A DNA stretch of 56,583 nucleotides from a virus (taxonomy: Duplodnaviria > Caudoviricetes): positions 1-56,583 of the IMG/VR virus record IMGVR_UViG_3300005512_000041; one strand, written 5' to 3'. A program made the translations under genes and the position numbers. The notes under the pieces were generated by a model that saw only the letters and a program-made list of their open reading frames with translations, searched no databases and was not told the DNA's origin. Numbering within the stretch: position 1 is the first letter of the stretch; each line of letters begins with the position of its first letter. Of this stretch, positions 2,384-24,257 are shown piece after piece.

Positions 2384-3819
2384 ACCAGAACGCCATCGCT
2401 CACGTCGACCGGGAGGAGGCCAATCACGCCCTCTCGCTCGCCAAGGGCACCAGTATCGCCGCATTCGTCCCCACCGACTTCTCCGGCCTGCTGACCGTCG
2501 CTGATTTGATGTCGCGCTCCGGCCCGGCCATCGCCAAGCACTGCCGGAACAACCCCGGCATCTGCCTGTCCATCGCCATGACCGCATATCAGAACGGGTT
2601 CAACCCGTGGCTCCTGGCGAACGACAGCTACGTGGTCAACGACCAGGTCGCCTATGGCGGCAAGTCGATCATCGCCATGGTCAACAACTCGCCGAAGCTG
2701 CAGGGCCGGCTGCGGTACACGTTCTCCGGCGACTGGCCGAACCGCCGCTTGCGCGTGGTCGGGCGCATCAAGGGAGAGCCCGAGGAACTGGACGTCGAGG
2801 TGAAGGCCGAGACGATCACTACGCGCAACTCGCCGAACTGGAAGCAGCAGCCAGATCAGCAACTCCGCTACTACGCCGGCCGGATGTGGGCGCGGGCGCA
2901 CATGCCCGAGGTCACGCTTGGCCTGCTCGACCGCGACGAGGCCATGGAAAACCTGGAGGAAGGGCCGGACGGCACCTATGCGCCGGCGACCGCCCGACCG
3001 ACGCGGGCCGATTACGTCGCCACTGCGGAAGCCGCCGCGGATCCCGATCCGGAGCCGGAAGCCACCTTCGCGTTCATCGACGAGGTTGGCGAGATCCTGT
3101 CCGATGACATGACGGCCCTGGATTGGGTCGGCCGGTACAGCGACCACTTGGCTCGCCTCAAGGACGCCAAGGCGATCGAGACTTTCATCGAGAACAACGA
3201 GGACACCGCCGAGGCGATCATCGCCGAGGGGCGCGTCGGAGACGCGGTCGACGTCATCACCGACGCGAACAAGGAATCCCGCGCCCGGGTCTCCGCGCCG
3301 GCGCCGACGAACAGCCTCGCCGTCCGCGGCAAGGGTCCGGCGGATTGGGTCGACAACTTCATCGCCGCGGTCGACATGGAGCCGGACGTCACGTCCCTCG
3401 CTAATCGCCAGCAGGCCAACCAGGATACGCTCGACCGCCTGAAGGGCGACGACGAACGGCTCTGGAACAAGGCTATGGCAGCCGTGCGTGAGCGGGCCGA
3501 GGCGCTGACCACGGACGACACGGCGGCCGGCCAGGGCGAGGACGACGACTCCGCTCCGCTCTACGAGGACGGCGACCCTGGCCCCGGCGCCGAGGACGGC
3601 CCGTCGCCCTGGCTGGTGCCGTACAACGAGCAACTGGCCGCCGGGAAGCTCCTGCCGTACCTGACGCAGGCGAAGAAGAAGGCCGAGCAGTGCAAGAGCC
3701 CGGCCGACTGGAGGGCGTTCGCCGCGGCCAACCGGCCGAACCTCGAACACGCGCACCAGCAGAAGAACCTGGCCGACGCGGGCAAGATCCTCGCGCAGAT
3801 CGATGAGGCGCTGTCATGA
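2380..3819 (+). CDS. recT: RecT-family single-strand annealing protein with long acidic C-terminal extension
   Basis: Motifs NP..CLSIAM.A...GFNP, YVVN, NSPNWKQQPDQQLRY..GRMWAR..MPEV.LG...DE; AGGAG RBS. Confidence 0.8.
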   Translation: MNQNAIAHVDREEANHALSLAKGTSIAAFVPTDFSGLLTVADLMSRSGPAIAKHCRNNPGICLSIAMTAYQNGFNPWLLANDSYVVNDQVAYGGKSIIAMVNNSPKLQGRLRYTFSGDWPNRRLRVVGRIKGEPEELDVEVKAETITTRNSPNWKQQPDQQLRYYAGRMWARAHMPEVTLGLLDRDEAMENLEEGPDGTYAPATARPTRADYVATAEAAADPDPEPEATFAFIDEVGEILSDDMTALDWVGRYSDHLARLKDAKAIETFIENNEDTAEAIIAEGRVGDAVDVITDANKESRARVSAPAPTNSLAVRGKGPADWVDNFIAAVDMEPDVTSLANRQQANQDTLDRLKGDDERLWNKAMAAVRERAEALTTDDTAAGQGEDDDSAPLYEDGDPGPGAEDGPSPWLVPYNEQLAAGKLLPYLTQAKKKAEQCKSPADWRAFAAANRPNLEHAHQQKNLADAGKILAQIDEALS

Positions 3820-11801: not shown

Positions 11802-14800
11802 TCAGTCGGCAAACACCCGGCTGCGCTCCTGCCCCAGCCGTTCCAACTTCTCGTAGATCCGCGCCAAGTCGCGTTCGAACTTCTCTTGGCTGATCATGTT
11901 CCGGTGCCGATCGCGGCCAAGACGCCGCATGTCGCCGCGCAGTTCCCGCTCGATCCGGTCAAACTGAAGGCCGTGGTAGTAGAACCCGGTCTCGACGTCC
12001 TGCGGCTTCACCTTGATACCGATCGAAGACAGTGCGGCGGAGTCTAGACCGTAGGGCCGATCGCTTCGGTCGCGCCCGCCGGTAGCAGCGGTGGCGATCT
12101 TTTCCCAATACCAAGACCCAGGCACCCACGGAGCCGACGGCATCCAAGCCTTCCACAGGTAGTCGGCCGTCTTCGCGACCTTGTCACCCGCGTTGTCGGT
12201 GTACTCGTTTGTGATCTCCTGGCCCGTGAACGCCTGCTTGTTCAGCAGCAACTCGGCCGCGATCATCAGCGGCCCGCCGAACTGCAGCCACGACGGCATC
12301 GGTAACGCCGACGCCCCTTGGTTCATGTCGAAGACGTCGCCCGCCGGGATCCACCGACGCACGTCCAGAAATACAGGGTTACCGTAGTCATCGTCCCACG
12401 GCATCCGGATCATGCGCGGAGCGCCGATCCAGGTGGAACCCTGCTCTTCGGTGCGCAGGGACCGTCGCTGCCGATCCTCCTCGTCCTCGTCTTCGGTAAT
12501 GGCGTATGCCATCGCATTCGCCACCCAAGCGATCGTGGCATACTTCGCCAGTTTCCAGGGGCGAGCCGCCACCGACTGCGCGAGAACGGGAATGGCGCGG
12601 TAGGTATAGGCAATGAACGGAAGAACCGTGCGGCGTGCGGCGTTCACCCAGGGGGCCCGGATGTCGTAGTCAAGGAACTGCTCGCGCGCTTCACGAGCCG
12701 CCGCCTTGGCATCCATGCCCTGGTCGCGCCGGCGAACATAGGTCGCCATACGGAAGACCTCGTCCTCGAACCGGTACAGATCGATCCCCTTCCGGTCGAG
12801 GTACTTCGCCATCCGCCATAGGCGATCGAAGAGTTTGCCGACGACGCCGGCAGACGATTCCAGGCTCCCGCGCCCTTCTTGCATGTCTCGCTCAATCTGT
12901 TCGAGCAAGGGTTTGAGGACGTTGTCACGGATCTCGACGCTCATCATGTCGGCGCCGAACGCGCCGTTCTTGACCGCGTCCTGATAGGCCGCATCTTTCT
13001 TGATCATCGATCGGATGGCACCGACCAGATCGACCGCGCGAACGTCAGCCAAGTCCATCAGGACCGCGTTCGACATCACGTTGTTCATGTGGACGACCGG
13101 GTTGCGCGCCGTCTTGTTGAGCTTCCAGTTGGTTATCAGAGCATCCCACCATCTCGGGCTCTGCATCCGCTCAACCTCGGCTAGATCTCGCCATATCTCA
13201 GCGCGCACCCAGCGGCCGGCCAGCGCGCCGTATCGCTTCGTTCGGCTCTGCGGGATATTGCCGTCCGGCACCAGCACCCATTGCACGTCCGGATCGGCCC
13301 AGAACCGGTTGTAGTCCTGCGCGCTCTTCCAGGTTCCGGCGGGCGGTTCCGCCTTCATCGACCATTCCGGATTGTCCGCAATGTCGCGGAAGAACCGGCC
13401 GGTCGACAGATCGTGCGCCATGCCCATGTACGTCTTGGCGATGGTGTAACGGGCATCGACGATCTCGCCCATCTGCTCGCGCTCGGCCTTCGTGTAGTCG
13501 CGCCAGAGGATGATTTTGTCCCCCCGGGTGCCGCGGACCTGCCACAACCCCTTGTCGGAATAGGACGCGAACTCGGACGGCACCTCACGCCCCTCCTCGA
13601 GGTAGACGCGCTTGGTGACCTTGCCCGTGTCGGCGACACGGTCGAGGATTCGGAACTCTGCCCCCATCGCCGGCGCCTGGCCCCCTTCCAGCAGATCGGG
13701 CATATCCTTCATCAGGCGCTCATACGGCACCTCGACGAACATGCCGCGCCCCTTGAACTGGTTGCCGACGATCTTTCGGCGGCGACGGCCGGCGACATTC
13801 GCGACCCAGCGAGCCAGCGCGCCGTTCTGCTCCTCGTGCTTCAGGTAGACCCGGTGCAGGTAGGCGCCGCGGTTGCGCTCGAACGCTTCGGGGCTCAGCA
13901 GGCCGAGTTCCACCGCTTCCGCGCCCATGGCGTCGATCGCGTTGCGGATCGGTTCAGACACGCGCTCCATGGCGCCCGCCGGGAGTTCTTCGCCGGTCAG
14001 CACCGCCTGCAGGACTCGCGCCTCGTCGGAGCCGATGCCTTCCTTCCGGAGCACATTCATCAACTCCGGGATCTCGGCCATGATCGCCCGCTCTTCCAGG
14101 GCGCGTTCACGCTCGCGGTCGACGTATTCCTGATCCAGGCCGTAGCGATCCAGCAACCCGGAACGCGCCGTGCGCAGGGTCGGGTTCAGCCAGGCCATGC
14201 GACCGTCTTCCTTGAACTCCGCGTTGACGATCAGGTCACCGGCCTTTTCCGACAACATGGCGCCGGGCTTCCACCGGCCCATCTCATCCAGCCCGCCGAA
14301 TATCTGGAACGGCACGCGCATGGCCCGGTCGATCGGCTGCGCGCCGACCAGTTTCATCATGAGCGACTGGCGTGCTTCGCGGGTCTGGGGATCGCGCGGG
14401 TCCGTGGCGGCCGCATCGTCGCGCGCATCCGAAGGGATGGAGAACCGATCCGCGCTGTCCTGTTCGCCAGCCTGCGGCCTCCGGCGACCGACTTCGCCGG
14501 AGGCCATGCGCTCGAACACCTGCTCCGCCGCCCGATCGAGGAACGGCGGCTCGGTCGCCGTGAAGCCCTTCCCGGTGATCCAGTTGGCGACCGCGCGGAA
14601 GAACCGCTCTACCTTCTGAAAAGCCCGCTCAATGCGGCCAGCCACCTTGAGACGGCCGGCCTTCCAGGCTTCCCACGCCATCGCGGCGGCTTCTTCTCGG
14701 CGAACTGCATCGGACTCGCCAGCATAGAGTCGCTCAACGTCAAACTGCCGCCGCCATAGACGGTTACGGTCGGAGTCTCCGAACAGGACTCGGTCTTCTT

Positions 14801-17800
14801 CGGCGGTGAACAGTCCTTGGCGCCGGAGGTCATGAAGCACCTCATGGTTCAGCGTGTCGGCGGGCGACGGGTTTGCCCTCACGTTGCCGTCGGCGTCAAC
14901 GTACCGCATCGCGATGACCATGGCACGGCCGAAACCGGGCAGGTCTTCAACGGAGACGCCCAAGCCAGTGCGCCCTGTCCGCTGCTCGATCACCTTATCG
15001 ACCACGACGACCTTGGCCTGCGGGTTCATCTGGCGGACCTGCCGGCGCAGGAAGGTGACCAGATCATCCGCCTGCGCCAGCAGTTTCGGATCCCAAGTGT
15101 ACGTGGTGCCGTTGTGCGAGAATGCCGTGCGGCCGTCGTCTCCGGCTGTGCCGCCATCGCCCGGGCGGGAGAAATTGATGCGAGGGTCGGACGGGTCGAA
15201 GGTGCCGCGGTTGCCGGTGGCGGATTTGATCTGCTCGGGGCGGAACGGCACATAGACGTCCGCCGGGGCAGCCCGGCCTTCGTAGCTATCTCGGGCCTGT
15301 TGGAACACCACCCCGTCGTGGCCGGCCTCCTTGGCCGCCATGATGGAGTCGAGGAATTCCTGCGGGTCGTATCTCGCTCCACGGACGTCCACGACGAACG
15401 GATTCTGGATCGAAAGATAGACGGGGACGACGTTGCCGCCCGCCGCGTAGGCGGTTCCAATTCGGCTGATCCGCAGAAACTCTTCGCTGATGCGCGCGTA
15501 CGTCCGGGACAACCAGTTGTTGCCCATCATCTCAACGTAGGGATCATGAAATTCCGTGTAGCTGGCAGCCGTCTCCGGATCTGAAGAGAAGAAGAACCCT
15601 TGAGCCCCGTCTGACGCGCCCGTGTTGCGACCACCGGCCCCGGCGTCGAATGCCTCGATATCGGCGTTCGTCCCATGGAAGACCCGCAACGGCTCGCCAT
15701 TCTCATCAACCACCTTGCTGTCACCAAACCACCGCTTGAACGCGGGCGCGTCGGTCTGCGGTCCAGCGTCAGCAGCGAACGAGAACCGATCGCCACCCTC
15801 TTCCGTATCCTCAACCTGCGCTGCGGCAGCGGCCTCTTCCTGCTTCGTCTCTGCGGCGAGCTCAGATTCCAGCGCCCGGACCTGCTCGCGCAGATCGTCG
15901 ATCTCCTTCTGACCCTCGAACCGCTGATCCATCTTCGGGGAGAACTGTTCGATGTCGGCCCGTGCTGCGGCCAACTCTTCCTCAAACCGCTTCTTCTGAG
16001 CCTCCAGGCTGCGGCCGACGGACTCGATCGCTTGCACCATGCCGCGAACAGAGGTGCCGATATTGATCTCTTCCTCGAAGCCAGCATTGCGCTTCAGCGC
16101 CAGCGCGGCCCGCCATTCCTGGCCGATCCGGTAGACATCGACCTCAAGGGGGAAGCCACCGACTTCGGCAACAGCCTGGTCCTTCACCTCCCGCTCCTGC
16201 GCGGCTAGGCGCTCGATCTCGCCCATGAGGGCTTCGCCAAACTCGACGCGCTCCTCGTAGACCTTGCCGTTCACCGTTCCCTTGAAGGCGTCGCCCTTCG
16301 TCTCGACGCGCTGGGCGATGTCCTGCTCTACCCCCTCAATGCGGCGGGTGTAGTAGTTGACCTGCCCCTCGGCCCGCTGCACCCGGGATCGCACGGCATA
16401 GACGTCGCGCTCGAATGCCCCCTTGCGGCGCTGCGCCCGTTCGAGATCCTGGCGAAGCTGCGTGAGCGTCATCAGGCGCGGATCGTTCGTGGATAGCGCC
16501 TTCGCCTGCTCGTAGTCGCTTGCCTTGCCGACATCCTCCATGTCGCGGATCGACGGGTCTCCCTCGAAGAACCCTTGAATGAACCGGGCCTTGGTCTCCA
16601 TCAGGCCCCACATCGTCGAGTCGTAGGTGCCCTTGGTGCTGTAGTCGTGGATCTCAATCTCTGGGTTCAGGTTGCCCTGACGGATGCCGCGGCCGTTGCG
16701 TTGCTCGTCATCGGCCGGAAACCAGAGCGGGTCGAGGTTGTGTAGCGCGTAGAGACGGCGCTGCACATTAAGCCCTGTCACCTTCGAGGCGATCATCACG
16801 CGAACCTTGCCCTCGTTCATGTCGTTGAACAGGCGCTGCTTCGCGACGTGGGTCTTGTACTCGGCGAGCACGGCAATCTGGTTCTTCGGGACGCCGCGGC
16901 GCACCAGTTCGGAGCGGATGTAGTCAGGCACCACAAACCCGCGCGCCGGCGAAAGGCCAAGCGTCACAAAGGCGATCTGTGTAGCCGGACCCTTGTCGAA
17001 CGCCTTTTCCTCGTATCCTTCCGGAGTCGGTCGGTGCAGGGGTTGGCGCTTCGTCTCTTCCCAGATCCGGTAGATGTTGTCGACCATCAGGTCGAGTTTG
17101 CTGGGAACCTCCGAGCGGCTTGAGTTGTCGATCAGCCGCATGTCGATCGCAGCGTGCCGGCCGTCGCCGATCACCTTCAGCAAGATGTCGTCACCCGGCT
17201 TCGGCGGGCCTTTCCGCTGCGCGAGCGCCCGCATTCGGTCTGCAAGCCCAGCCTGAAACGCCTCCAGCGCGTCGGACTTCTCCGCCAGGTTCATGATGCG
17301 CTTGCCGCCCTTGATGTCCGGCCGGGTCACGTACTGCGCCAGCATGTTGCTGGTGACCACGTCCATGGCCTGCCGGACCATCACCGACAGTTCGGGGACG
17401 TTGATGAACTTGGCGAAGCGCGTGACCTGCTTGTAGCCGCCGGCAGGATCCTGCTCGAGGTTGGTCACGGTATCGCCGAAGGCGCCGGCCCAGGCGTCAA
17501 AGTGCGTGAGCTGCCGCGCCTCTAGCTCGTTCATCTGCAGGAACCGGCTGACGGTGAACAACTCGGCCATGGTGTTGGTAATCGGCGTTCCCGAGGCCAG
17601 CACGAGGTTGCGGCCCGGGTTAACCGTTTCCAGATACCGAGTTTTCACGAACAAGTCCCACGCATACGTCGAGCCTTCCGCGGTCACCCCTTTCACGTTC
17701 GACATCTTCGTCGCGAAGTCGAGCTTTCGAAACTCATGGGCCTCATCGACGAACAGAAAATCGACGCCCATCTCCTCGAAGGTGAAGACCTGATCCTTGC

Positions 17801-20800
17801 GCCCTTTGCCGCGGCCGGCGAGGCGCTGCTCAAGACGTTCGATCTGCTTCTCGATCCGTGACCTCGTAATCCGCTCTCCCTCAGTGCCTTTTACCTCTTC
17901 CAGAAGATCGCGGTATTGATCGATCTGATCTTGGATGAGCCCTTCCTGAAACTCGTTGCTGATCGGGATGATGCCGAACGCCGAGTGCGTGATGATGACG
18001 GCGTCCAGATCCTCGTTCGCCACGTTGGCGATGAACTGCTTGCGCCGGTCGGTGTGGAAGCGTCGATCGTCGGCAACCGCGATCCGCGCTGTCGGATACT
18101 GCTCGTAGAACTCCTTGGTGAACTGGCCCAGCATGTGCCCGGGGACGACGTACATCGGCTTGCGCACGAGGCCGAGACGGCGCATCTCCATCCCAGCGCC
18201 GATCATGGCCGACGTCTTTCCGGCCCCCACGGCGTGCGCCATGTAGGTGTTGCCCTCCTGGATGATCCGGGCAATCACGCGCTTCTGGTGCGGACGCCAG
18301 GACCAGTCGGACGAAACCCCCGGCGTCGTGAGGTAAGAGCCGTCATACTCCGGGACGACGAGGTTGTTGTATTCCTCGTTGTAGAGTGCCGCGAGCCGGT
18401 CGGCCCGGTCTTGATCGCTGAAGATCCAGTCAGAGAACCGCGCCTTGATCTCGCGCATCTTCTCGGCGGCAGCCTCAGTGGCCGCCGGGTTCAACTGCTG
18501 CGTCCGCTTCCCGTCCACATAGACCGTGTCGTAGACCTTCGGATCCTGCTTGTTCAGAGCCGAGGCGATCAGTTCCGTGGCGGACTTCTCCGGCGTGCCA
18601 TAAGTGGACGTGGCGGCGGCCGAGCTCTTGTCGCCGTCGACCTGCCATAGCGCCAGGGCCGGCGTGTAGCGAACCGACAAGCTGTTCAGGCCGAGGGACT
18701 CGGTCGCGAACTCCTCGATCGTCTCGGTGGGGATCCACGGCATTCCCAGGTTCGCGCCGATTTCCGACGGCGGGATCGGGGCGGGTTGGGCCGCTTCCAG
18801 GGCGGCGACGTTGCGCACGAATGCCGGATCACGGTCGGCTTCGGCCCGGGCGATCCGGAGCTTCCGGCGCACGTTGCCCGACAGATACTTCTCACGGGTC
18901 TGGTACGTCTCCTCAGTGCCGGGCACCCGGTAGATGGCATCGCCCAGGCCTTCGATCACCTCGCTGCGGGTCTTTCCGGAAACCTCTGCTATCCGGTCGA
19001 TGTCGACCCGGCCGGTCTGGTTCAGGGTGTAGAGGAGCGCATCGCCGAGGCTGTTGATCTCGGGCTTGCGGTCCTTGGTGATGACGTTCTCACGGAATAC
19101 CGCGCCCTTGTCGGCGGTGCCGTCCGCGTCGTTGTAGTGCTCAATCGCGCGCAGGCGATAGGATTCCGGGTCATCGCTGAACGGATCGACGTTCGGGCGC
19201 TTCTCGACGACGATGTCGTCCATCTCGTCCGGGTTGAAGGTGCCCTCGCTCCACGGGCGCCCTTCGGCCTCCGCCTTTTCCCGCGCTTCCGCCCGCGCCT
19301 TGGCGATTTCCGACAGCGACGCCTCGGCTTCGATCATGTCGGTGGGGTCGAACGTACCTTCGTCGAACTCCTCCCCGGCGTAGCGCGCCTCTTCGCGGGC
19401 GGCGGATCGGGCGTTCTCTGCCTGGATGCGGGTCGGTCGGCGATAGCTGTACTCCGCCTTGTTGATCGGGCCGAACTGCTCGACGAAAGCGTCATAGGCC
19501 TTGTTCAGCCGTGCGCGGGCGGTCTCTGCATTGGCAGTGTCGCCGGCCAAGTCGGCGGCATAGACGGCGCGTAGGGAGTCACGAACCGGGATCAGCGCGC
19601 GGATCCGCTCTATCTCTCCCCCGGATCGGCCGCCCTTCACGCCCTTGCCGCGGCCCTGGACTGACGATCCGACGCCATCGACCACCTGCATCAGCTTGCC
19701 ATCGTCGCTGATATAGAACGATCCGTCCTTGCGCTCGCTGGTGCCGAAGTCGACCTCTGCCCGATCGGTCGTGTCCTGCCATTCGCCCATGACGCCGGCG
19801 GGTAGCCGCGCCGCAGCCTCGTCAAGGAGGGACTGGATGTCTGCGCCAGGCCGCGCTTTGACGCCATAGCGGTTCTGGTAGAGCGGATCGAAGAAGCCTT
19901 CCTCGCCCAGCACCATGGCCGGGTTGTCCGCGAAGTAGGCGCTCACGCGCCCCTTCATCGGCTTGCCTTCCTTGTTCGGCAGCGTCACCTCGACCGTCTC
20001 GGTCCATCGGCCGTCGCCGGCCGGCTCGCTCGGGAGGCGCTTGCGCAGGATCACGATGTCCGTCGTGACCTTGGTGCCGGCGTTCCGCTCAAAGGCATCG
20101 CCCGGCAGACGGATTGCCCCCACCAGATCGGCGCGCTCCGCCATATACTCGCGCGCGCTGGTGTCGATCTTGTTCATCGTGCCAGCCGACGAGATGAACA
20201 TCAGCAGGCCGCCCGGGCGCACCGCGTCCAGGGACTTCGCGAAGAAATAGTCGTGCAGCAAGAACCGGTGCTTGGCGTACTTCGGGTCGGACTGGACGGC
20301 GACATCCGCGAACGGCGGGTTGCCGATGACCAGGTCGAAGGTGTTCTCCGGCAGCGGCGCCTTGGTGAAATCGTCTTGCCGCACGCCCCACTTCGGATAG
20401 AGCAGGCGCGCGATCCGGGCCGTCGTGTGATCCAGTTCCAGGCCGGCATAGTCGGTGGCCTGCGCCACGTCGGCCGGCATCATCCCAGCGAAGTTACCGA
20501 CGCCCATACCCGGCTCGAACACCTTGCCCCCCTCGAAGCCCAGGCGGCGCGCGGCGTCCCACATCGCGCGGACGATGGTTTCAGAGGTGTAGTGCGCATA
20601 CTGGATCGAGCGTTGAGCGGTCTTGTACTCGGTGTCGGTCAGCAGTTCCCGCAGGCGCTCGCCGATCTTCTCGAAGCCCTTGGCGAACTTCCCGTCGGCG
20701 TCGGGGAACGCGCCCTTGATGCCGCCCCAGCCGACATAGCGCGCCAGTTCCGCCTGCTCCGCCTTGGTCGCCGGCCGCCCTTCGGCCTCGATCTCGCGCA

Positions 20801-23800
20801 GGAGTTCGATCGCCCGGATGTTGTCGAGAGCCTTCTGCCGCCAGGATCGATCTTCGGCGAGCGTCCCCGGCTCAATGAAGTGGTTCTCGCCCTTTACAGT
20901 TTGGGCGGTGTCAGAACCTCGGCCATTGCGTCCTCGGGAAACTCGATCAGCGTCCCGCGCACGATCTCCTCGGCCTCCCGGCGTTTCGGCAGCGTCGGGT
21001 TCGGCCCCGCGATCTCGTCGAACAGCCGTTGCGCTTCGACCGCCTTCTTCTGCAGGTGCGAGTCCAGTGCGCCGGTTCGACGCAACTCGCGGAACATCTT
21101 CGGCGCTTGATCGCGCATCGCCATCAGATACGGACCCTTGAACTCCATCGGTCCCTTCCTCCTGTAGCACCGCGTCGAGATCGGCGGCGGCCACCTCCTG
21201 ATATGGGGTCATATCGCCGGACATCACCCCCGGATAGTCGCGGGCTGCGTTATACCACAGTTTGATGAACGGCCGCGCCGCGTCTCCCAGGTCTTCGACG
21301 ATCGCCCGGGCGAAATCGTTGAACTTCCGCGCCCCCGCCTCGACATGGAAGACGGCGAGCACGGCGCCCTCGGCCATGATCTCCGGATCCACCCCGGCAG
21401 ATAGCTGGTTCTTCAGCTTGTCGCGCAGTTTGCGGCGGGCTTCCTCGGCGCGGTCCTGGCTGATCAGTTTGTTGTTGGCGCCGTAGGCGGCAGGGCGGGC
21501 AGGCTTTCGCCCCTCCGTCCGCGGCGACACCTCGACGATCTCCAGACGGCCAGATTCCTTGGCTGCGTCCAGAACGTCGCGGCCCTGCTCATTCCGTCGC
21601 TGGTTCTCGGCCTTCTTCAGCGCGGCAGCGATAGCACCTGCGCGCGTGCTGCCGTAACCGTCCCACACCGCTATCGGATCCCGGCGACGCACAATCGCCT
21701 TGAAGTCTCCGAAGGTCCGACCGTCCGCCACTGCCTCTTGTCGCGTCATCTTGGCGATTGAGGTGAGGGAGAGCCCGGCGGGAATGTCCGGGTCTCCTTC
21801 CGGCCCCTCCATCTTCGCGACATTCTCCCGGCGCTGCCGCTCACGGTCGTCTTCGACCGGCACTTCGCCGCGGCGGATGGATTCCTGTTCTGTTGGCGCG
21901 GCTACCGGTGTCAGGCCTTCGGTGTCGAGGCCGCGCGCCTGATCAGCCAGCGTCTTCGGATCGCCTTCACCCGTGGCGCGCATCCACACTTCCACAATCG
22001 AGCCCGGCCGCACGTATCCGGCCTTCTCGAATGCCTGCCGCACACCAATACCCGGCTGAAAGGCTGGGCCGGTACTGCGTTCGACGGTCCAGCCCAGCGC
22101 AATCGGGGCCTCTTGGGCAAACCGCTCACGCGACATCCCGTCGGATTTGAACTTCCGTGCCATTGCCTCGGCTTCGGCGACGATCGACTCCGCCGTTGGC
22201 GGCGGCGCCACCAGATCCGCCAGCGCCTCCCGGACTTGCTGCTCCTTCTTCTTCGGGAAGATCCAGCCCTTCGCCTTCTTCGCCCAGATCGGGCGGGCGC
22301 CGGTGATTCCCTTGATCCGGTCCAGGTTCTCCTTGGTCTGGCCTGTGACGATGATCGACTTGTCCGAGTAGTCGCGGATCGTCAGGGCCGGTTCTGCCGG
22401 CAGCGGGCCGCCGCGCTCGGCATCGGTCATGCCATCGCGGCCGACCACGTTGACCAGGACACGCGGACCAGTGGGGGCGACCCGTCCTGTCGGCTGCGCC
22501 TCGCCCGGCTGGTTCACGTCCTGCGCAGATGCTTGCTGAACCGGGGCCGTGGCGGGCGCAGTTTCCTGCGGTTCCTGCGGTCCGATCGGGTCACCAGTGG
22601 GCTCCCGCATCGGCGCCCGTGCCCCGCGCACATCACGATGCGCAAGGCGCAGCGCGTTTGCCCGCGCAATCTCAATCTCCGCATCGTTGAAGGCTGGCCC
22701 AGAGATCAGGTCCATGTATGCGTCGTAGGCCGCGCCCTCCAATCCGGTTGGGTTCCGATCGGCCGCGGCATCGATGATCACCTCAATGTCTGACTGCTCG
22801 GTCAGGCCCTCGTCGACCAGCCGGCGGGCCCGGTCGCGAAGCGCCATGTCCTCTTCGTTGCGCGTCGGCCCGCCCAGCATGTCGGGTTGCTCGCGTTCGG
22901 CCACCGGCAAGAGCCCGGTCACATCAAGCGCCGGCGCCTCATCGGCTGTCGCGACAAGCTCATCGTCCTGCTTTTCCTCCGGCTCGACCTCCCGGGCCGG
23001 CGGGTCGATGTCCAGAGGCCGGCCGGCGGCGGCGTCCTCGAGCATCGCCTTGCCTCGGCTGATCGCCCCGGTATCGATCGGGCTCGCCTCGTCCTCCGGC
23101 GTGACCGGGGCCATGCGCTTGGGCGGGGTCAGATCCGTGGCGCCGAGATAGCCTTCGGCCGGGCCGGGCATCGGCGGCGGCGCGGTGGGCACAGGGGCCG
23201 TCGGCGCGGCTTCCTCCTCACCGATCATGTCCTCGGCCGGCATGGCGCCTTCCGGCACGCCTGCAACGTCCTGGCCGGGGATCGTCGGGCCGGCTGGTTG
23301 CTGCTCCACACCCCCGGCGCCATCTTGCCCGTCAGCGGCGCCCCTACGGCCGCGCACGAAGGGTTCGGTGATGACGGCGAACGTGCCGCCCATGGCGCCG
23401 CCGAGAATGCCCGCTCGGGCCAGGTTCTCCAGCGCCTCGCCCCAGGTCATGTTCTCGTCCAGGACGCCGACGCTGTAGCCGTCCTGAAGCGCCTGCGTGA
23501 ATACCTCCTGCGCGGCCTCGGCGAGGGTGCCCTTGAAGAGGCGGGACACAAACGACTTCCCCGGCCGCGCCAGAATGCCGAGCGGGATAGCCTCGGGGAT
23601 CGCCTCGGCAGCGGCCATGAACAGGCCGTCCTGCATCGCTTCATCGTGCGTCCGGCCGTTCCCGCGGCTCTCCGCGTACTGGTCGCCATAGACCTGGCCG
23701 CCCATGATGGCGACACCGGTTACCGGATTTCGGGTGATCATCGTGGCCGCGACGGCGGGTGCCATGTTGGTCATCGACACCGCGAAGTCAAAGGCGAAGC

Positions 23801-24257
23801 CCTTGAACGAGTTCGGGTCGATGTCCGGGCGGGCCGCCTGCATGTCGGCGGTCGCCTGTTCGGCAACCCGCCGCGCGGTCTCCTGCGTCTCTGCGCGCCG
23901 CGCATTGATCTCGGCCATGGCCTGTTCTTCGGTCTGACCCGTGGCCCCGCCGAAGTATTTCGCGCCCATGGCCGACGCGCGCTCCGTCGCCCCGAGATCG
24001 CCATTGGCTCCCGACTCTTGGATACCCGCGATCATCCGACGGGTCATCGGCCCGAGCGTGTTCAGGAAACCATCCCACGTCTCGGCCCAGGTCGCCCCGG
24101 CAAAGGTGCGAGGGCGCTCCTGCTGATCGAGCGCGACCAGACCCGACGTGTCGAGCGGCGTCAGGCCAGACGTATCTAGACCGCTGCTACCGCTTTCAAC
24201 CGGCGCCAGGCCAGTCGTGTCCAGCGGAACGAGGCCGGTGGTGTCCAGGCGTGCCAT
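11802..24257 (-). CDS. Giant (4151 aa) DarB-like polyvalent virion protein: N6-adenine MTase, SNF2 helicase, ART-like and zincin-like domains
   Basis: FEPGMGVGNF and NPPF (~20310-20520); AHAVGAGKT (~18220); DEAH (~17740); FHGT..GFFFS..VYL..DGV (~15170-15745); HEVLH (14832-14846); last gene of the ejection cluster. Confidence 0.92.
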   Translation of the reverse strand: MARLDTTGLVPLDTTGLAPVESGSSGLDTSGLTPLDTSGLVALDQQERPRTFAGATWAETWDGFLNTLGPMTRRMIAGIQESGANGDLGATERASAMGAKYFGGATGQTEEQAMAEINARRAETQETARRVAEQATADMQAARPDIDPNSFKGFAFDFAVSMTNMAPAVAATMITRNPVTGVAIMGGQVYGDQYAESRGNGRTHDEAMQDGLFMAAAEAIPEAIPLGILARPGKSFVSRLFKGTLAEAAQEVFTQALQDGYSVGVLDENMTWGEALENLARAGILGGAMGGTFAVITEPFVRGRRGAADGQDGAGGVEQQPAGPTIPGQDVAGVPEGAMPAEDMIGEEEAAPTAPVPTAPPPMPGPAEGYLGATDLTPPKRMAPVTPEDEASPIDTGAISRGKAMLEDAAAGRPLDIDPPAREVEPEEKQDDELVATADEAPALDVTGLLPVAEREQPDMLGGPTRNEEDMALRDRARRLVDEGLTEQSDIEVIIDAAADRNPTGLEGAAYDAYMDLISGPAFNDAEIEIARANALRLAHRDVRGARAPMREPTGDPIGPQEPQETAPATAPVQQASAQDVNQPGEAQPTGRVAPTGPRVLVNVVGRDGMTDAERGGPLPAEPALTIRDYSDKSIIVTGQTKENLDRIKGITGARPIWAKKAKGWIFPKKKEQQVREALADLVAPPPTAESIVAEAEAMARKFKSDGMSRERFAQEAPIALGWTVERSTGPAFQPGIGVRQAFEKAGYVRPGSIVEVWMRATGEGDPKTLADQARGLDTEGLTPVAAPTEQESIRRGEVPVEDDRERQRRENVAKMEGPEGDPDIPAGLSLTSIAKMTRQEAVADGRTFGDFKAIVRRRDPIAVWDGYGSTRAGAIAAALKKAENQRRNEQGRDVLDAAKESGRLEIVEVSPRTEGRKPARPAAYGANNKLISQDRAEEARRKLRDKLKNQLSAGVDPEIMAEGAVLAVFHVEAGARKFNDFARAIVEDLGDAARPFIKLWYNAARDYPGVMSGDMTPYQEVAAADLDAVLQEEGTDGVQGSVSDGDARSSAEDVPRVASNRRTGLAPAEEGGRSATAVRRDRGAEPDAAETPGGRGDRARDADRVSRGRNGRGSDTAQTVKGENHFIEPGTLAEDRSWRQKALDNIRAIELLREIEAEGRPATKAEQAELARYVGWGGIKGAFPDADGKFAKGFEKIGERLRELLTDTEYKTAQRSIQYAHYTSETIVRAMWDAARRLGFEGGKVFEPGMGVGNFAGMMPADVAQATDYAGLELDHTTARIARLLYPKWGVRQDDFTKAPLPENTFDLVIGNPPFADVAVQSDPKYAKHRFLLHDYFFAKSLDAVRPGGLLMFISSAGTMNKIDTSAREYMAERADLVGAIRLPGDAFERNAGTKVTTDIVILRKRLPSEPAGDGRWTETVEVTLPNKEGKPMKGRVSAYFADNPAMVLGEEGFFDPLYQNRYGVKARPGADIQSLLDEAAARLPAGVMGEWQDTTDRAEVDFGTSERKDGSFYISDDGKLMQVVDGVGSSVQGRGKGVKGGRSGGEIERIRALIPVRDSLRAVYAADLAGDTANAETARARLNKAYDAFVEQFGPINKAEYSYRRPTRIQAENARSAAREEARYAGEEFDEGTFDPTDMIEAEASLSEIAKARAEAREKAEAEGRPWSEGTFNPDEMDDIVVEKRPNVDPFSDDPESYRLRAIEHYNDADGTADKGAVFRENVITKDRKPEINSLGDALLYTLNQTGRVDIDRIAEVSGKTRSEVIEGLGDAIYRVPGTEETYQTREKYLSGNVRRKLRIARAEADRDPAFVRNVAALEAAQPAPIPPSEIGANLGMPWIPTETIEEFATESLGLNSLSVRYTPALALWQVDGDKSSAAATSTYGTPEKSATELIASALNKQDPKVYDTVYVDGKRTQQLNPAATEAAAEKMREIKARFSDWIFSDQDRADRLAALYNEEYNNLVVPEYDGSYLTTPGVSSDWSWRPHQKRVIARIIQEGNTYMAHAVGAGKTSAMIGAGMEMRRLGLVRKPMYVVPGHMLGQFTKEFYEQYPTARIAVADDRRFHTDRRKQFIANVANEDLDAVIITHSAFGIIPISNEFQEGLIQDQIDQYRDLLEEVKGTEGERITRSRIEKQIERLEQRLAGRGKGRKDQVFTFEEMGVDFLFVDEAHEFRKLDFATKMSNVKGVTAEGSTYAWDLFVKTRYLETVNPGRNLVLASGTPITNTMAELFTVSRFLQMNELEARQLTHFDAWAGAFGDTVTNLEQDPAGGYKQVTRFAKFINVPELSVMVRQAMDVVTSNMLAQYVTRPDIKGGKRIMNLAEKSDALEAFQAGLADRMRALAQRKGPPKPGDDILLKVIGDGRHAAIDMRLIDNSSRSEVPSKLDLMVDNIYRIWEETKRQPLHRPTPEGYEEKAFDKGPATQIAFVTLGLSPARGFVVPDYIRSELVRRGVPKNQIAVLAEYKTHVAKQRLFNDMNEGKVRVMIASKVTGLNVQRRLYALHNLDPLWFPADDEQRNGRGIRQGNLNPEIEIHDYSTKGTYDSTMWGLMETKARFIQGFFEGDPSIRDMEDVGKASDYEQAKALSTNDPRLMTLTQLRQDLERAQRRKGAFERDVYAVRSRVQRAEGQVNYYTRRIEGVEQDIAQRVETKGDAFKGTVNGKVYEERVEFGEALMGEIERLAAQEREVKDQAVAEVGGFPLEVDVYRIGQEWRAALALKRNAGFEEEINIGTSVRGMVQAIESVGRSLEAQKKRFEEELAAARADIEQFSPKMDQRFEGQKEIDDLREQVRALESELAAETKQEEAAAAAQVEDTEEGGDRFSFAADAGPQTDAPAFKRWFGDSKVVDENGEPLRVFHGTNADIEAFDAGAGGRNTGASDGAQGFFFSSDPETAASYTEFHDPYVEMMGNNWLSRTYARISEEFLRISRIGTAYAAGGNVVPVYLSIQNPFVVDVRGARYDPQEFLDSIMAAKEAGHDGVVFQQARDSYEGRAAPADVYVPFRPEQIKSATGNRGTFDPSDPRINFSRPGDGGTAGDDGRTAFSHNGTTYTWDPKLLAQADDLVTFLRRQVRQMNPQAKVVVVDKVIEQRTGRTGLGVSVEDLPGFGRAMVIAMRYVDADGNVRANPSPADTLNHEVLHDLRRQGLFTAEEDRVLFGDSDRNRLWRRQFDVERLYAGESDAVRREEAAAMAWEAWKAGRLKVAGRIERAFQKVERFFRAVANWITGKGFTATEPPFLDRAAEQVFERMASGEVGRRRPQAGEQDSADRFSIPSDARDDAAATDPRDPQTREARQSLMMKLVGAQPIDRAMRVPFQIFGGLDEMGRWKPGAMLSEKAGDLIVNAEFKEDGRMAWLNPTLRTARSGLLDRYGLDQEYVDRERERALEERAIMAEIPELMNVLRKEGIGSDEARVLQAVLTGEELPAGAMERVSEPIRNAIDAMGAEAVELGLLSPEAFERNRGAYLHRVYLKHEEQNGALARWVANVAGRRRRKIVGNQFKGRGMFVEVPYERLMKDMPDLLEGGQAPAMGAEFRILDRVADTGKVTKRVYLEEGREVPSEFASYSDKGLWQVRGTRGDKIILWRDYTKAEREQMGEIVDARYTIAKTYMGMAHDLSTGRFFRDIADNPEWSMKAEPPAGTWKSAQDYNRFWADPDVQWVLVPDGNIPQSRTKRYGALAGRWVRAEIWRDLAEVERMQSPRWWDALITNWKLNKTARNPVVHMNNVMSNAVLMDLADVRAVDLVGAIRSMIKKDAAYQDAVKNGAFGADMMSVEIRDNVLKPLLEQIERDMQEGRGSLESSAGVVGKLFDRLWRMAKYLDRKGIDLYRFEDEVFRMATYVRRRDQGMDAKAAAREAREQFLDYDIRAPWVNAARRTVLPFIAYTYRAIPVLAQSVAARPWKLAKYATIAWVANAMAYAITEDEDEEDRQRRSLRTEEQGSTWIGAPRMIRMPWDDDYGNPVFLDVRRWIPAGDVFDMNQGASALPMPSWLQFGGPLMIAAELLLNKQAFTGQEITNEYTDNAGDKVAKTADYLWKAWMPSAPWVPGSWYWEKIATAATGGRDRSDRPYGLDSAALSSIGIKVKPQDVETGFYYHGLQFDRIERELRGDMRRLGRDRHRNMISQEKFERDLARIYEKLERLGQERSRVFAD
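20894..21148 (-). CDS. 84-aa gene nested out of frame within the giant gene (possibly TnpV-like)
   Basis: AGGAGG RBS before ATG; amphipathic helical sequence; coincides with an R/G-rich linker in the host frame. Confidence 0.65.
   Translation of the reverse strand: MEFKGPYLMAMRDQAPKMFRELRRTGALDSHLQKKAVEAQRLFDEIAGPNPTLPKRREAEEIVRGTLIEFPEDAMAEVLTPPKL

Follow-up and report, generated by a model that had tools for sequence, protein, structure and literature searches.

A predicted TnpV-like gene nested in the linker of a giant DarB-like phage gene

Introduction

In Bacillus subtilis, comS encodes a 46-residue, lineage-restricted regulatory peptide, read out of frame and on the same strand within the very large multidomain gene srfAB. 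Phage P1 packages into its capsid the antirestriction protein DarB, a methyltransferase-helicase whose incorporation depends on small accessory proteins (DarA, Hdf, DdrA, and others); DarB and these accessory proteins are reportedly the subject of work by Piya and colleagues from 2017. Here, we describe a small open reading frame (ORF), probably a genuine gene for a TnpV-like protein, that lies complete and out of frame within the giant DarB-like gene of the IMG/VR virus record IMGVR_UViG_3300005512_000041 (Duplodnaviria; Caudoviricetes). The whole of this complete-looking, 56.6 kb record (positions 1 to 56,583) was analyzed and is referred to throughout as the window.

The nested gene differs from comS in that its predicted product is a folded domain kept across distant phage lineages. 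The P1 accessory proteins, in turn, are encoded by separate genes without similarity to the window's small protein, and P1 darB matched just the methyltransferase core of the query used here. A phage example of nesting is the "embedded class" of spanin genes, Rz1 in Rz, described for Bcep22-like phages in the available part of PMC9144972. There, as here, a larger phage gene encloses a small one in full, start signals included, with both read from one strand and the small one in the +1 frame. Rz1 and Rz, however, are two small partners of one lysis function, both of which are needed, whereas the partnership proposed for the window is putative; the window's host gene specifies a multi-enzyme virion protein of 4151 residues, the overlap occupies a linker between domains, and the nested family also occurs free-standing.

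The predicted product resembles TnpV, known from Tn4451/Tn4453 and Tn6104-6106, in being a small helical protein of mobile elements, with 38 of 43 family members matching the same part of the TnpV profile. Its stand-alone relatives adjoin site-specific recombinases, as tnpV adjoins tnpX, whereas the window gene lies in a late virion operon; the window protein, moreover, comes from a phage of Proteobacteria and not from a Firmicutes transposon, and covers positions 34–69 of the 111 in the profile. TnpV's own function is itself merely postulated (PMC3158075, in the part available).

Phage genes nested in the +1 frame are known, and a gene inside a DarB-like gene was found neither in the papers nor in the annotations of the 62 records examined here. 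The literature on TnpV, polyvalent proteins, DarB, and Bcep22/BcepIL02 yielded no paper describing such a gene; the words TnpV, overlapping, and frameshift occur 0 times in PMC5512222, and the homolog in Burkholderia phage JC1 is treated as a single gene in the available part of PMC9144972.

Results

A complete out-of-frame ORF singled out by composition

The features on which the analysis turns are as follows.

20894..21148, minus strand: nested TnpV-like gene (predicted protein P0001), 84 codons from ATG to TAA, in the +1 frame of the giant gene
21158..21163, minus strand: Shine-Dalgarno (SD) sequence AGGAGG, 9 nt 5' of the nested ATG; the host frame reads Gln-Glu-Glu here
20895..21149, minus strand: host-frame linker, residues 1037-1121 of the giant protein; Arg/Gly/Ala/Asp-rich, weakly conserved, and stop-free
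11802..24257, minus strand: giant gene for a DarB-like polyvalent virion protein, 4151 codons, with N6-methyltransferase (N6-MTase), helicase, and ART-PolyVal domains
19758..20897, minus strand: beginning of the methyltransferase (MTase) module, residues 1121-1500; the nested stop codon falls on its opening codons

The original prediction, made from the letters of the sequence, had described an 84-residue, same-strand, out-of-frame ORF with AGGAGG and ATG; the description is exact, with its end at 21165 taking in the ribosome-binding site. The predicted protein has a pI of 6.6 and a mass of 9.6 kDa, and the nested TAA overlaps host codons V1121-K1122, where the conserved MTase module begins. 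The length of the ORF is unremarkable, since stop-free runs in alternative frames elsewhere in the giant gene reach 188 codons. It is composition, not length, that singles it out: among 22 same-strand, alternative-frame ORFs of at least 60 aa in the giant gene, the nested ORF has a third-position GC content (GC3) of 0.82 in its own frame and 0.40 in the host frame, and the contrast in the runner-up is just 0.15. Third codon positions are GC-rich along the giant gene (0.7-0.95). Within the overlap, and only there, this GC periodicity shifts by one base, with host positions 1/2/3 at approximately 0.85/0.72/0.42, values usual for coding in the nested frame.

The runner-up was also considered and dropped (14609-14845, minus strand, 78 codons, GC3 0.78 in its own frame and 0.63 in the host frame), its Cys/Ser/Pro-rich translation having a non-coding look; the host region over it is probably another linker.

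The start signals recur in relatives. An ATG or GTG start is present at the nested gene in all loci, and an SD core lies 4-17 nt before it in 23 of the 24 nested genes examined; for comparison, the same core precedes 203 of 1559 (13%) of the other +1-frame ATG or GTG codons in 15 giant ORFs. The sequence features of an embedded overlapping gene are present: a complete, same-strand ORF in a different frame, conserved start signals of its own, and selection on both frames, as described below. No promoter-like or terminator-like sites were found between 20500 and 22000.

Selection on both reading frames

A scan of IMG/VR with the small-protein family returned 17 loci, each of which (17/17) lies inside an ORF of 1548-5085 codons and in the same relative frame; some of these host ORFs end at contig ends. 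Four of the 17 are near-identical, leaving 14 distinct loci and, with the window, 15. When nested codons were resampled synonymously, according to each phage's own usage, the host frame remained stop-free in 0.011-0.40 of trials per locus, with 0.9-3.9 host-frame stops expected at each; the frame is nonetheless open in 15 of 15 distinct loci, for a summed log10 probability of -16.8 with loci treated as independent.

The amino acid sequence of the nested frame is the more constrained of the two. Over the same columns, identity between loci is 0.524 in the nested frame and 0.345 in the host frame, and nucleotide differences at nested codon positions 1/2/3 are 0.363/0.301/0.471. Changes that are silent in the nested frame and alter the host frame are enriched in the cultured pairs DC1 versus JC1 (17/43) and Gervaise versus Claudette (12/25), against an expected 0.26, and changes altering both frames are depleted in close cultured pairs. 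The pattern of substitutions favors the nested frame, and the R/G/D-rich linker that the original prediction had described for the host frame is borne out by composition: residues 1037-1121 are 86% R/G/D/A/E/S/P/T, compared to 60% for the whole protein, and 9% hydrophobic. These sequence comparisons show that selection keeps both frames open, with the nested frame carrying a normal coding signature and the stronger amino acid constraint.

Occurrence in cultured phages

A tblastn search of P0001, a check proposed at the outset, gave nothing beyond chance matches against 50,697 phage records (E 7), and the copies in cultured phages were located instead through the host gene and its composition. 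Residues 940-1500 of the giant protein match 133 phage records; in 41 of these, which come exclusively from Ralstonia and Burkholderia phages, the match spans 80% or more of the query. Close reading covered the Ralstonia phages Gervaise, Gerry, RPZH6, and Claudette and the Burkholderia Lessieviruses Bcep22, DC1, and JC1, with an eighth phage, Ralstonia phage YL1, read less fully. Gervaise and DC1 show a flip in GC periodicity at the same spot, filled by a 107-codon ORF in the +1 frame with AGGAGG before its ATG. This DC1-type ORF is found in 41 records of the same Ralstonia and Burkholderia phages, in each of which the giant coding sequence (CDS) is the sole annotated feature.

A query restricted to the MTase matched 119 phage records, from which seven further phages were examined. 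Erwinia phage PEp14, Klebsiella phage LASTA, Pseudomonas phage Itty13, Vibrio phage VvAW1, and Pseudoalteromonas phage Y7 each carry a +1 ORF of 98-109 codons, with SD and ATG, immediately before the MTase. A PEp14-type copy was present in 21 more records, including phages of Agrobacterium, Ochrobactrum, Sinorhizobium, and Microcystis, and these records annotate the giant gene only (orf33 in the older record of Sinorhizobium phage PBC5). Agrobacterium phage Atu_ph08 shows the usual +1 nesting within one CDS, its frame having been determined by arithmetic. The two types together, as identified by tblastn, amount to 62 GenBank/RefSeq records; in 62 of 62 only the giant gene is annotated, in keeping with the expectation that gene callers would miss the ORF. 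With frame and signals read in eleven phages, the nested gene and its ribosome-binding site are documented for phages of Burkholderia, Ralstonia, Erwinia, Klebsiella, Pseudomonas, Vibrio, Pseudoalteromonas, Agrobacterium, and Sinorhizobium, so that the layout is shown by sequence to be conserved across alpha-, beta-, and gamma-proteobacterial phages. The original prediction had itself named stops in homologous linkers, together with loss of a conserved ribosome-binding site, as evidence that would count against it; all 17 viral loci are open, and the SD core is present in 23/24.

A separate observation concerns RPZH6, YL1, and Claudette (L026, L027, L028), in which the host-frame protein diverges abruptly from that of Gervaise and Gerry approximately 60 codons past the nested gene. 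The annotated giant CDSs of these three phages are shorter, which suggests an internal insertion or rearrangement.

Phage PBC5 has a variant layout, present in both of its records (AF448724, 1332-2600, L050; NC_003324, L057). The TnpV-like segment retains its SD and ATG, and is in frame with the upstream gene (orf33, annotated as DarB-like), which stops at the end of the segment. The MTase frame is the -1 frame, open from 575 nt upstream of that stop, and its coding signal is clear well before the annotated start of orf23. This arrangement could reflect a single-nucleotide mistake in an old record, two separate genes, or a frameshift.

The small-protein family and its resemblance to TnpV

A word-seeded search retained 26 of 27 candidates at E<=0.01, proteins of 71-119 aa that are 53-90% identical. 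The first residue is shared with P0001 by 25 of the 26, one starting six residues further upstream, and most have a conserved C-terminal motif. When 1.84 billion representatives were searched with a profile built from 43 sequences, 277 proteins matched at E<=1e-3, 140 of them at E<=1e-10; the best 150 of the 277 are mostly 55-160 aa long with the domain beginning at residue 1, the longest being 399 aa. A search limited to longer proteins returned just 4, of 250-326 aa, and no in-frame fusion to a giant protein for the P0001 subfamily.

The AlphaFold2 model, built with an alignment, consists of five helices with a pLDDT of 88.8. Foldseek found no match for it in PDB or BFVD at E<=1e-3, and the best Z-score in a wide VIA-align search, 6.8, is background for a helical protein. 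The top BFVD entry, Q8W6J4_2, is a chunk of a long viral protein (probability 0.91, TM 0.64, 22% identity), and might be an in-frame TnpV-like domain like that of the PBC5 upstream gene. PHROGs, NCBIfam, and PADLOC contained no family for the small protein.

The original prediction also noted a resemblance to TnpV, which held for the family and fell short for P0001 itself. Against the Pfam TnpV profile (PF14198), P0001 scores 12.5 bits (E 0.14), below the cut-off of 27 bits. Its relatives match consistently: 38 of 43 reach E<=1, with a best value of 6.4e-6, and any other family is matched by at most one member; their TnpV scores, where shown, are 15-21 bits, all under the cut-off. The nested proteins of PEp14, LASTA, Itty13, and PBC5 match at E 4e-4 to 0.015, over profile positions 22-83 or 5-77, and the nearest Atlas cluster (score 0.88) has TnpV on 11% of its members. 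A PF14198 search of the virus record itself gave no match, in a test whose controls were also not above the cut-off. The small protein is accordingly classed as TnpV-like, consistent with the family yet below its threshold, and not as a demonstrated member.

Several longer relatives have additional parts. Some bacterial homologs of 260-300 aa (P0029, P0035, P0061, and L029 2483-3316) have a TnpV-like domain followed by a conserved second domain without a Pfam family. A metagenomic protein of 372 aa (P0043) combines a TnpV-like domain, a helical module corresponding to residues 925-1007 of the giant protein, and a second, partial TnpV-like end; its helical module matches that of the window by BLASTP at E 5e-13 and 37% identity. 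This architecture is a possible hint that the two domains work together.

Stand-alone copies

The small gene also occurs outside giant genes. Both bacterial loci from metagenome-assembled genomes (2/2) and 12 of 21 metagenome loci have stand-alone copies, the host frame being closed or short and without similarity to the giant protein; the remaining 9 of 21 metagenome loci have the small gene nested in a giant homolog. In two soil/sediment contigs (L036, 634-1563 and 1502-1741, and L037), the stand-alone copy directly follows a serine recombinase (Resolvase E 1e-44), which overlaps the start of the TnpV-like gene by approximately 60 nt, a gene order that recalls the tnpX-tnpV order of Tn4451. 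Another copy follows a tyrosine integrase (L020), one lies near a DUF3987 gene (L029), and at a further locus (L019) the ORFs upstream of the copy show no similarity to the giant protein.

The giant gene and its modules

One further feature of the giant protein enters the comparison with relatives.

21237..21485, minus strand: upstream helical module of the giant protein, residues 925-1007

The giant gene is the largest in the window, making up approximately 22% of the genome, and stands last in a late structural operon that runs from terminase, portal, and major head protein onward, with an endolysin-like gene after it. Pfam places Eco57I/N6_Mtase at residues 1223-1407, DEAD/ResIII/SNF2/Helicase_C at 1986-2528, and ART-PolyVal at 2851-3020, and residues 940-1500 share 39-41% identity with proteins annotated as DarB-like. 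An N6-adenine MTase, a superfamily 2 (SF2) helicase, and further conflict domains are thus joined in one polypeptide, as in DarB-like proteins. The helical module at 925-1007 is clear in 8 of 13 aligned relatives and partial in a ninth; the other four have different upstream modules, and the nested gene precedes the MTase module irrespective of which upstream module is present.

Discussion

Weighing the explanations for the nested frame

The reading that we consider likely is that of a genuine same-strand nested gene, whose product would be an 84-residue, five-helix, TnpV-related protein, inside the linker of the DarB-like gene. The small protein would be translated from its own SD and ATG, by independent internal initiation late in infection, and in the giant protein these bases would specify a disordered linker of Arg/Gly/Asp/Ala that joins the N-terminal modules to the MTase-helicase module. 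Several observations weigh against this reading or narrow it. Translation of the nested gene is predicted from sequence, a search for sequencing runs with positions 19800-22800 having listed none, and the 17/17 count of the layout was ascertained through the small protein itself. Pseudomonas phage 8P, among the DarB-like phages examined, showed no such nested ORF, and the layout is not invariant, for in PBC5 the upstream gene shares its frame with the TnpV-like segment, and the MTase is set off from that segment by a further domain. The three subfamilies of nested proteins are weakly linked (hhalign probability 30-35%, pairwise E ~4e-4, colinear over at most 62 columns), and are called one gene because sequence is joined by identical position, frame, and start signals. 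Finally, stand-alone relatives lie on contigs without a detectable DarB-like gene—though these contigs are short—so that the small protein may not need the MTase-helicase.

A programmed +1 frameshift could partly or wholly account for access to the nested frame; its product would be the N-terminal ~1030 residues of the giant protein, ending in the TnpV-like sequence and not entering the MTase. Such a mechanism would accord with the PBC5 arrangement, in which the upstream gene is in frame with the TnpV-like segment and the open MTase frame reaches a further 575 nt upstream, with the union of TnpV-like domain and upstream helical module in the single polypeptide P0043, and with a nested frame that is open for at least 10 codons 5' of the start in all loci. 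It would, however, render superfluous the aligned ATG/GTG start and SD core that are kept in 23/24 genes, PBC5 included; nested-frame stops occur just 10-20 codons upstream in several loci, Atu_ph08, a phage of a rhizobial host like PBC5, has the +1 layout within one CDS, and no slippery motif was noticed by eye in the window, where no systematic search was made. We therefore regard frameshifting as improbable. Far less credible still is that the giant ORF is an accidentally open frame over three genes, N-terminal, small, and MTase-helicase. The host frame over the overlap does resemble an out-of-frame reading of GC-rich coding DNA, and the PBC5 records annotate two genes; yet no stop interrupts the host frame at any of the 15 distinct loci, despite the stops expected in each, and a 4515-aa homolog was found among the virion proteins of JC1 with 51 unique peptides, according to the available part of PMC9144972. 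Past the nested stop the host frame has no conserved start codon, and the window and three other loci lack any from -60 to +240 nt; the MTase part therefore cannot begin there as a separate gene. We attach similarly little weight to the idea that the nested ORF is a decaying relic of a once-read-through gene, from which no protein is now made. The window copy is indeed shorter, at 84 aa, than most relatives, with approximately 9 fewer loop residues, and the case for expression of the nested gene is built on sequence; but start, SD (23/24), and frame are intact in loci from alpha-, beta-, and gamma-proteobacterial phages at 37-60% identity, the substitution pattern favors the nested frame, and the AlphaFold2 model is confident.

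The direction of overprinting

The original prediction had spoken of a gene overprinted inside the giant one, and this direction probably requires correction. The nested frame has ordinary coding composition and a confident fold, the host frame is low-complexity and weakly conserved here, and stand-alone copies exist; the small gene is therefore probably the older frame, and the giant-protein linker the overprint. Genes flanking a pre-existing small gene may have fused, the small gene being read through and the linker created in the process. An alternative route, insertion of a mobile element into the giant gene, was considered and set aside, no convincing flanking repeats having been found.

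Possible functions of the small protein

The original prediction had suggested a partner, chaperone, or inhibitor of the MTase-helicase, a role that is putative. Granting that the nested gene is genuine, its small protein may serve the MTase-helicase module that it always precedes, for instance by acting as an adaptor in folding or packaging, or as a brake that restrains the enzyme until injection; we put this forward as a tentative proposal, somewhat short of an even chance. Nesting would guarantee joint inheritance and joint late transcription of the small and giant genes. A complex prediction for residues 912-1500 of the giant protein with the small protein gave an ipSAE of 0.00 in both runs, a result that counts neither for nor against binding. 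It is also conceivable, if rather unlikely, that the small protein is an autonomous mobile-element factor—an Xis-like recombination-directionality factor or a regulator—whose position reflects history and not partnership. The stand-alone relatives directly after a serine recombinase (L036, L037) or tyrosine integrase (L020) are what this would predict, as is the consistent sub-threshold match to TnpV, for which a role in excision has been postulated by likeness to lambda Xis (PMC3158075, in the part available). The window gene, however, sits in a late virion operon far from recombinases, the protein is near-neutral with no recognized DNA-binding fold, and this reading would leave unexplained why the gene so strictly adjoins the MTase module in distant phage lineages.

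A broader version of the adaptor or brake proposal is that TnpV-like proteins are a dedicated, obligatory partner of the polyvalent MTase-helicase module in phages, plasmids, and conjugative elements, which we hold to be doubtful, though worth stating. TnpV-bearing elements sit in the snf2 gene of integrative and conjugative elements of Streptococcus suis, as reported in the available part of PMC9815147, and this location may be the same association seen from another side.

Implications

Bacteria and phages rarely have long, conserved stretches that encode two proteins on the same strand, and gene callers routinely lose these; the one described here sits in the largest gene of a whole phage group, including cultured phages in several named genera. 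Its probable origin, with a folded nested protein as the older partner and a mere fusion-made linker as the overprint, would reverse the usual picture of a new protein arising within an old gene. Should the small protein act together with the injected MTase-helicase, it would supply a missing component of a widespread antirestriction system. And if an obligatory partnership were true, the partner would time activation of the injected enzyme, nesting would have kept the pair together across bacterial phyla, and TnpV, unexplained since the 1990s, would gain a function; among long regions that encode two proteins on one strand, the pair would then be one of the most widespread in prokaryotic mobile elements.

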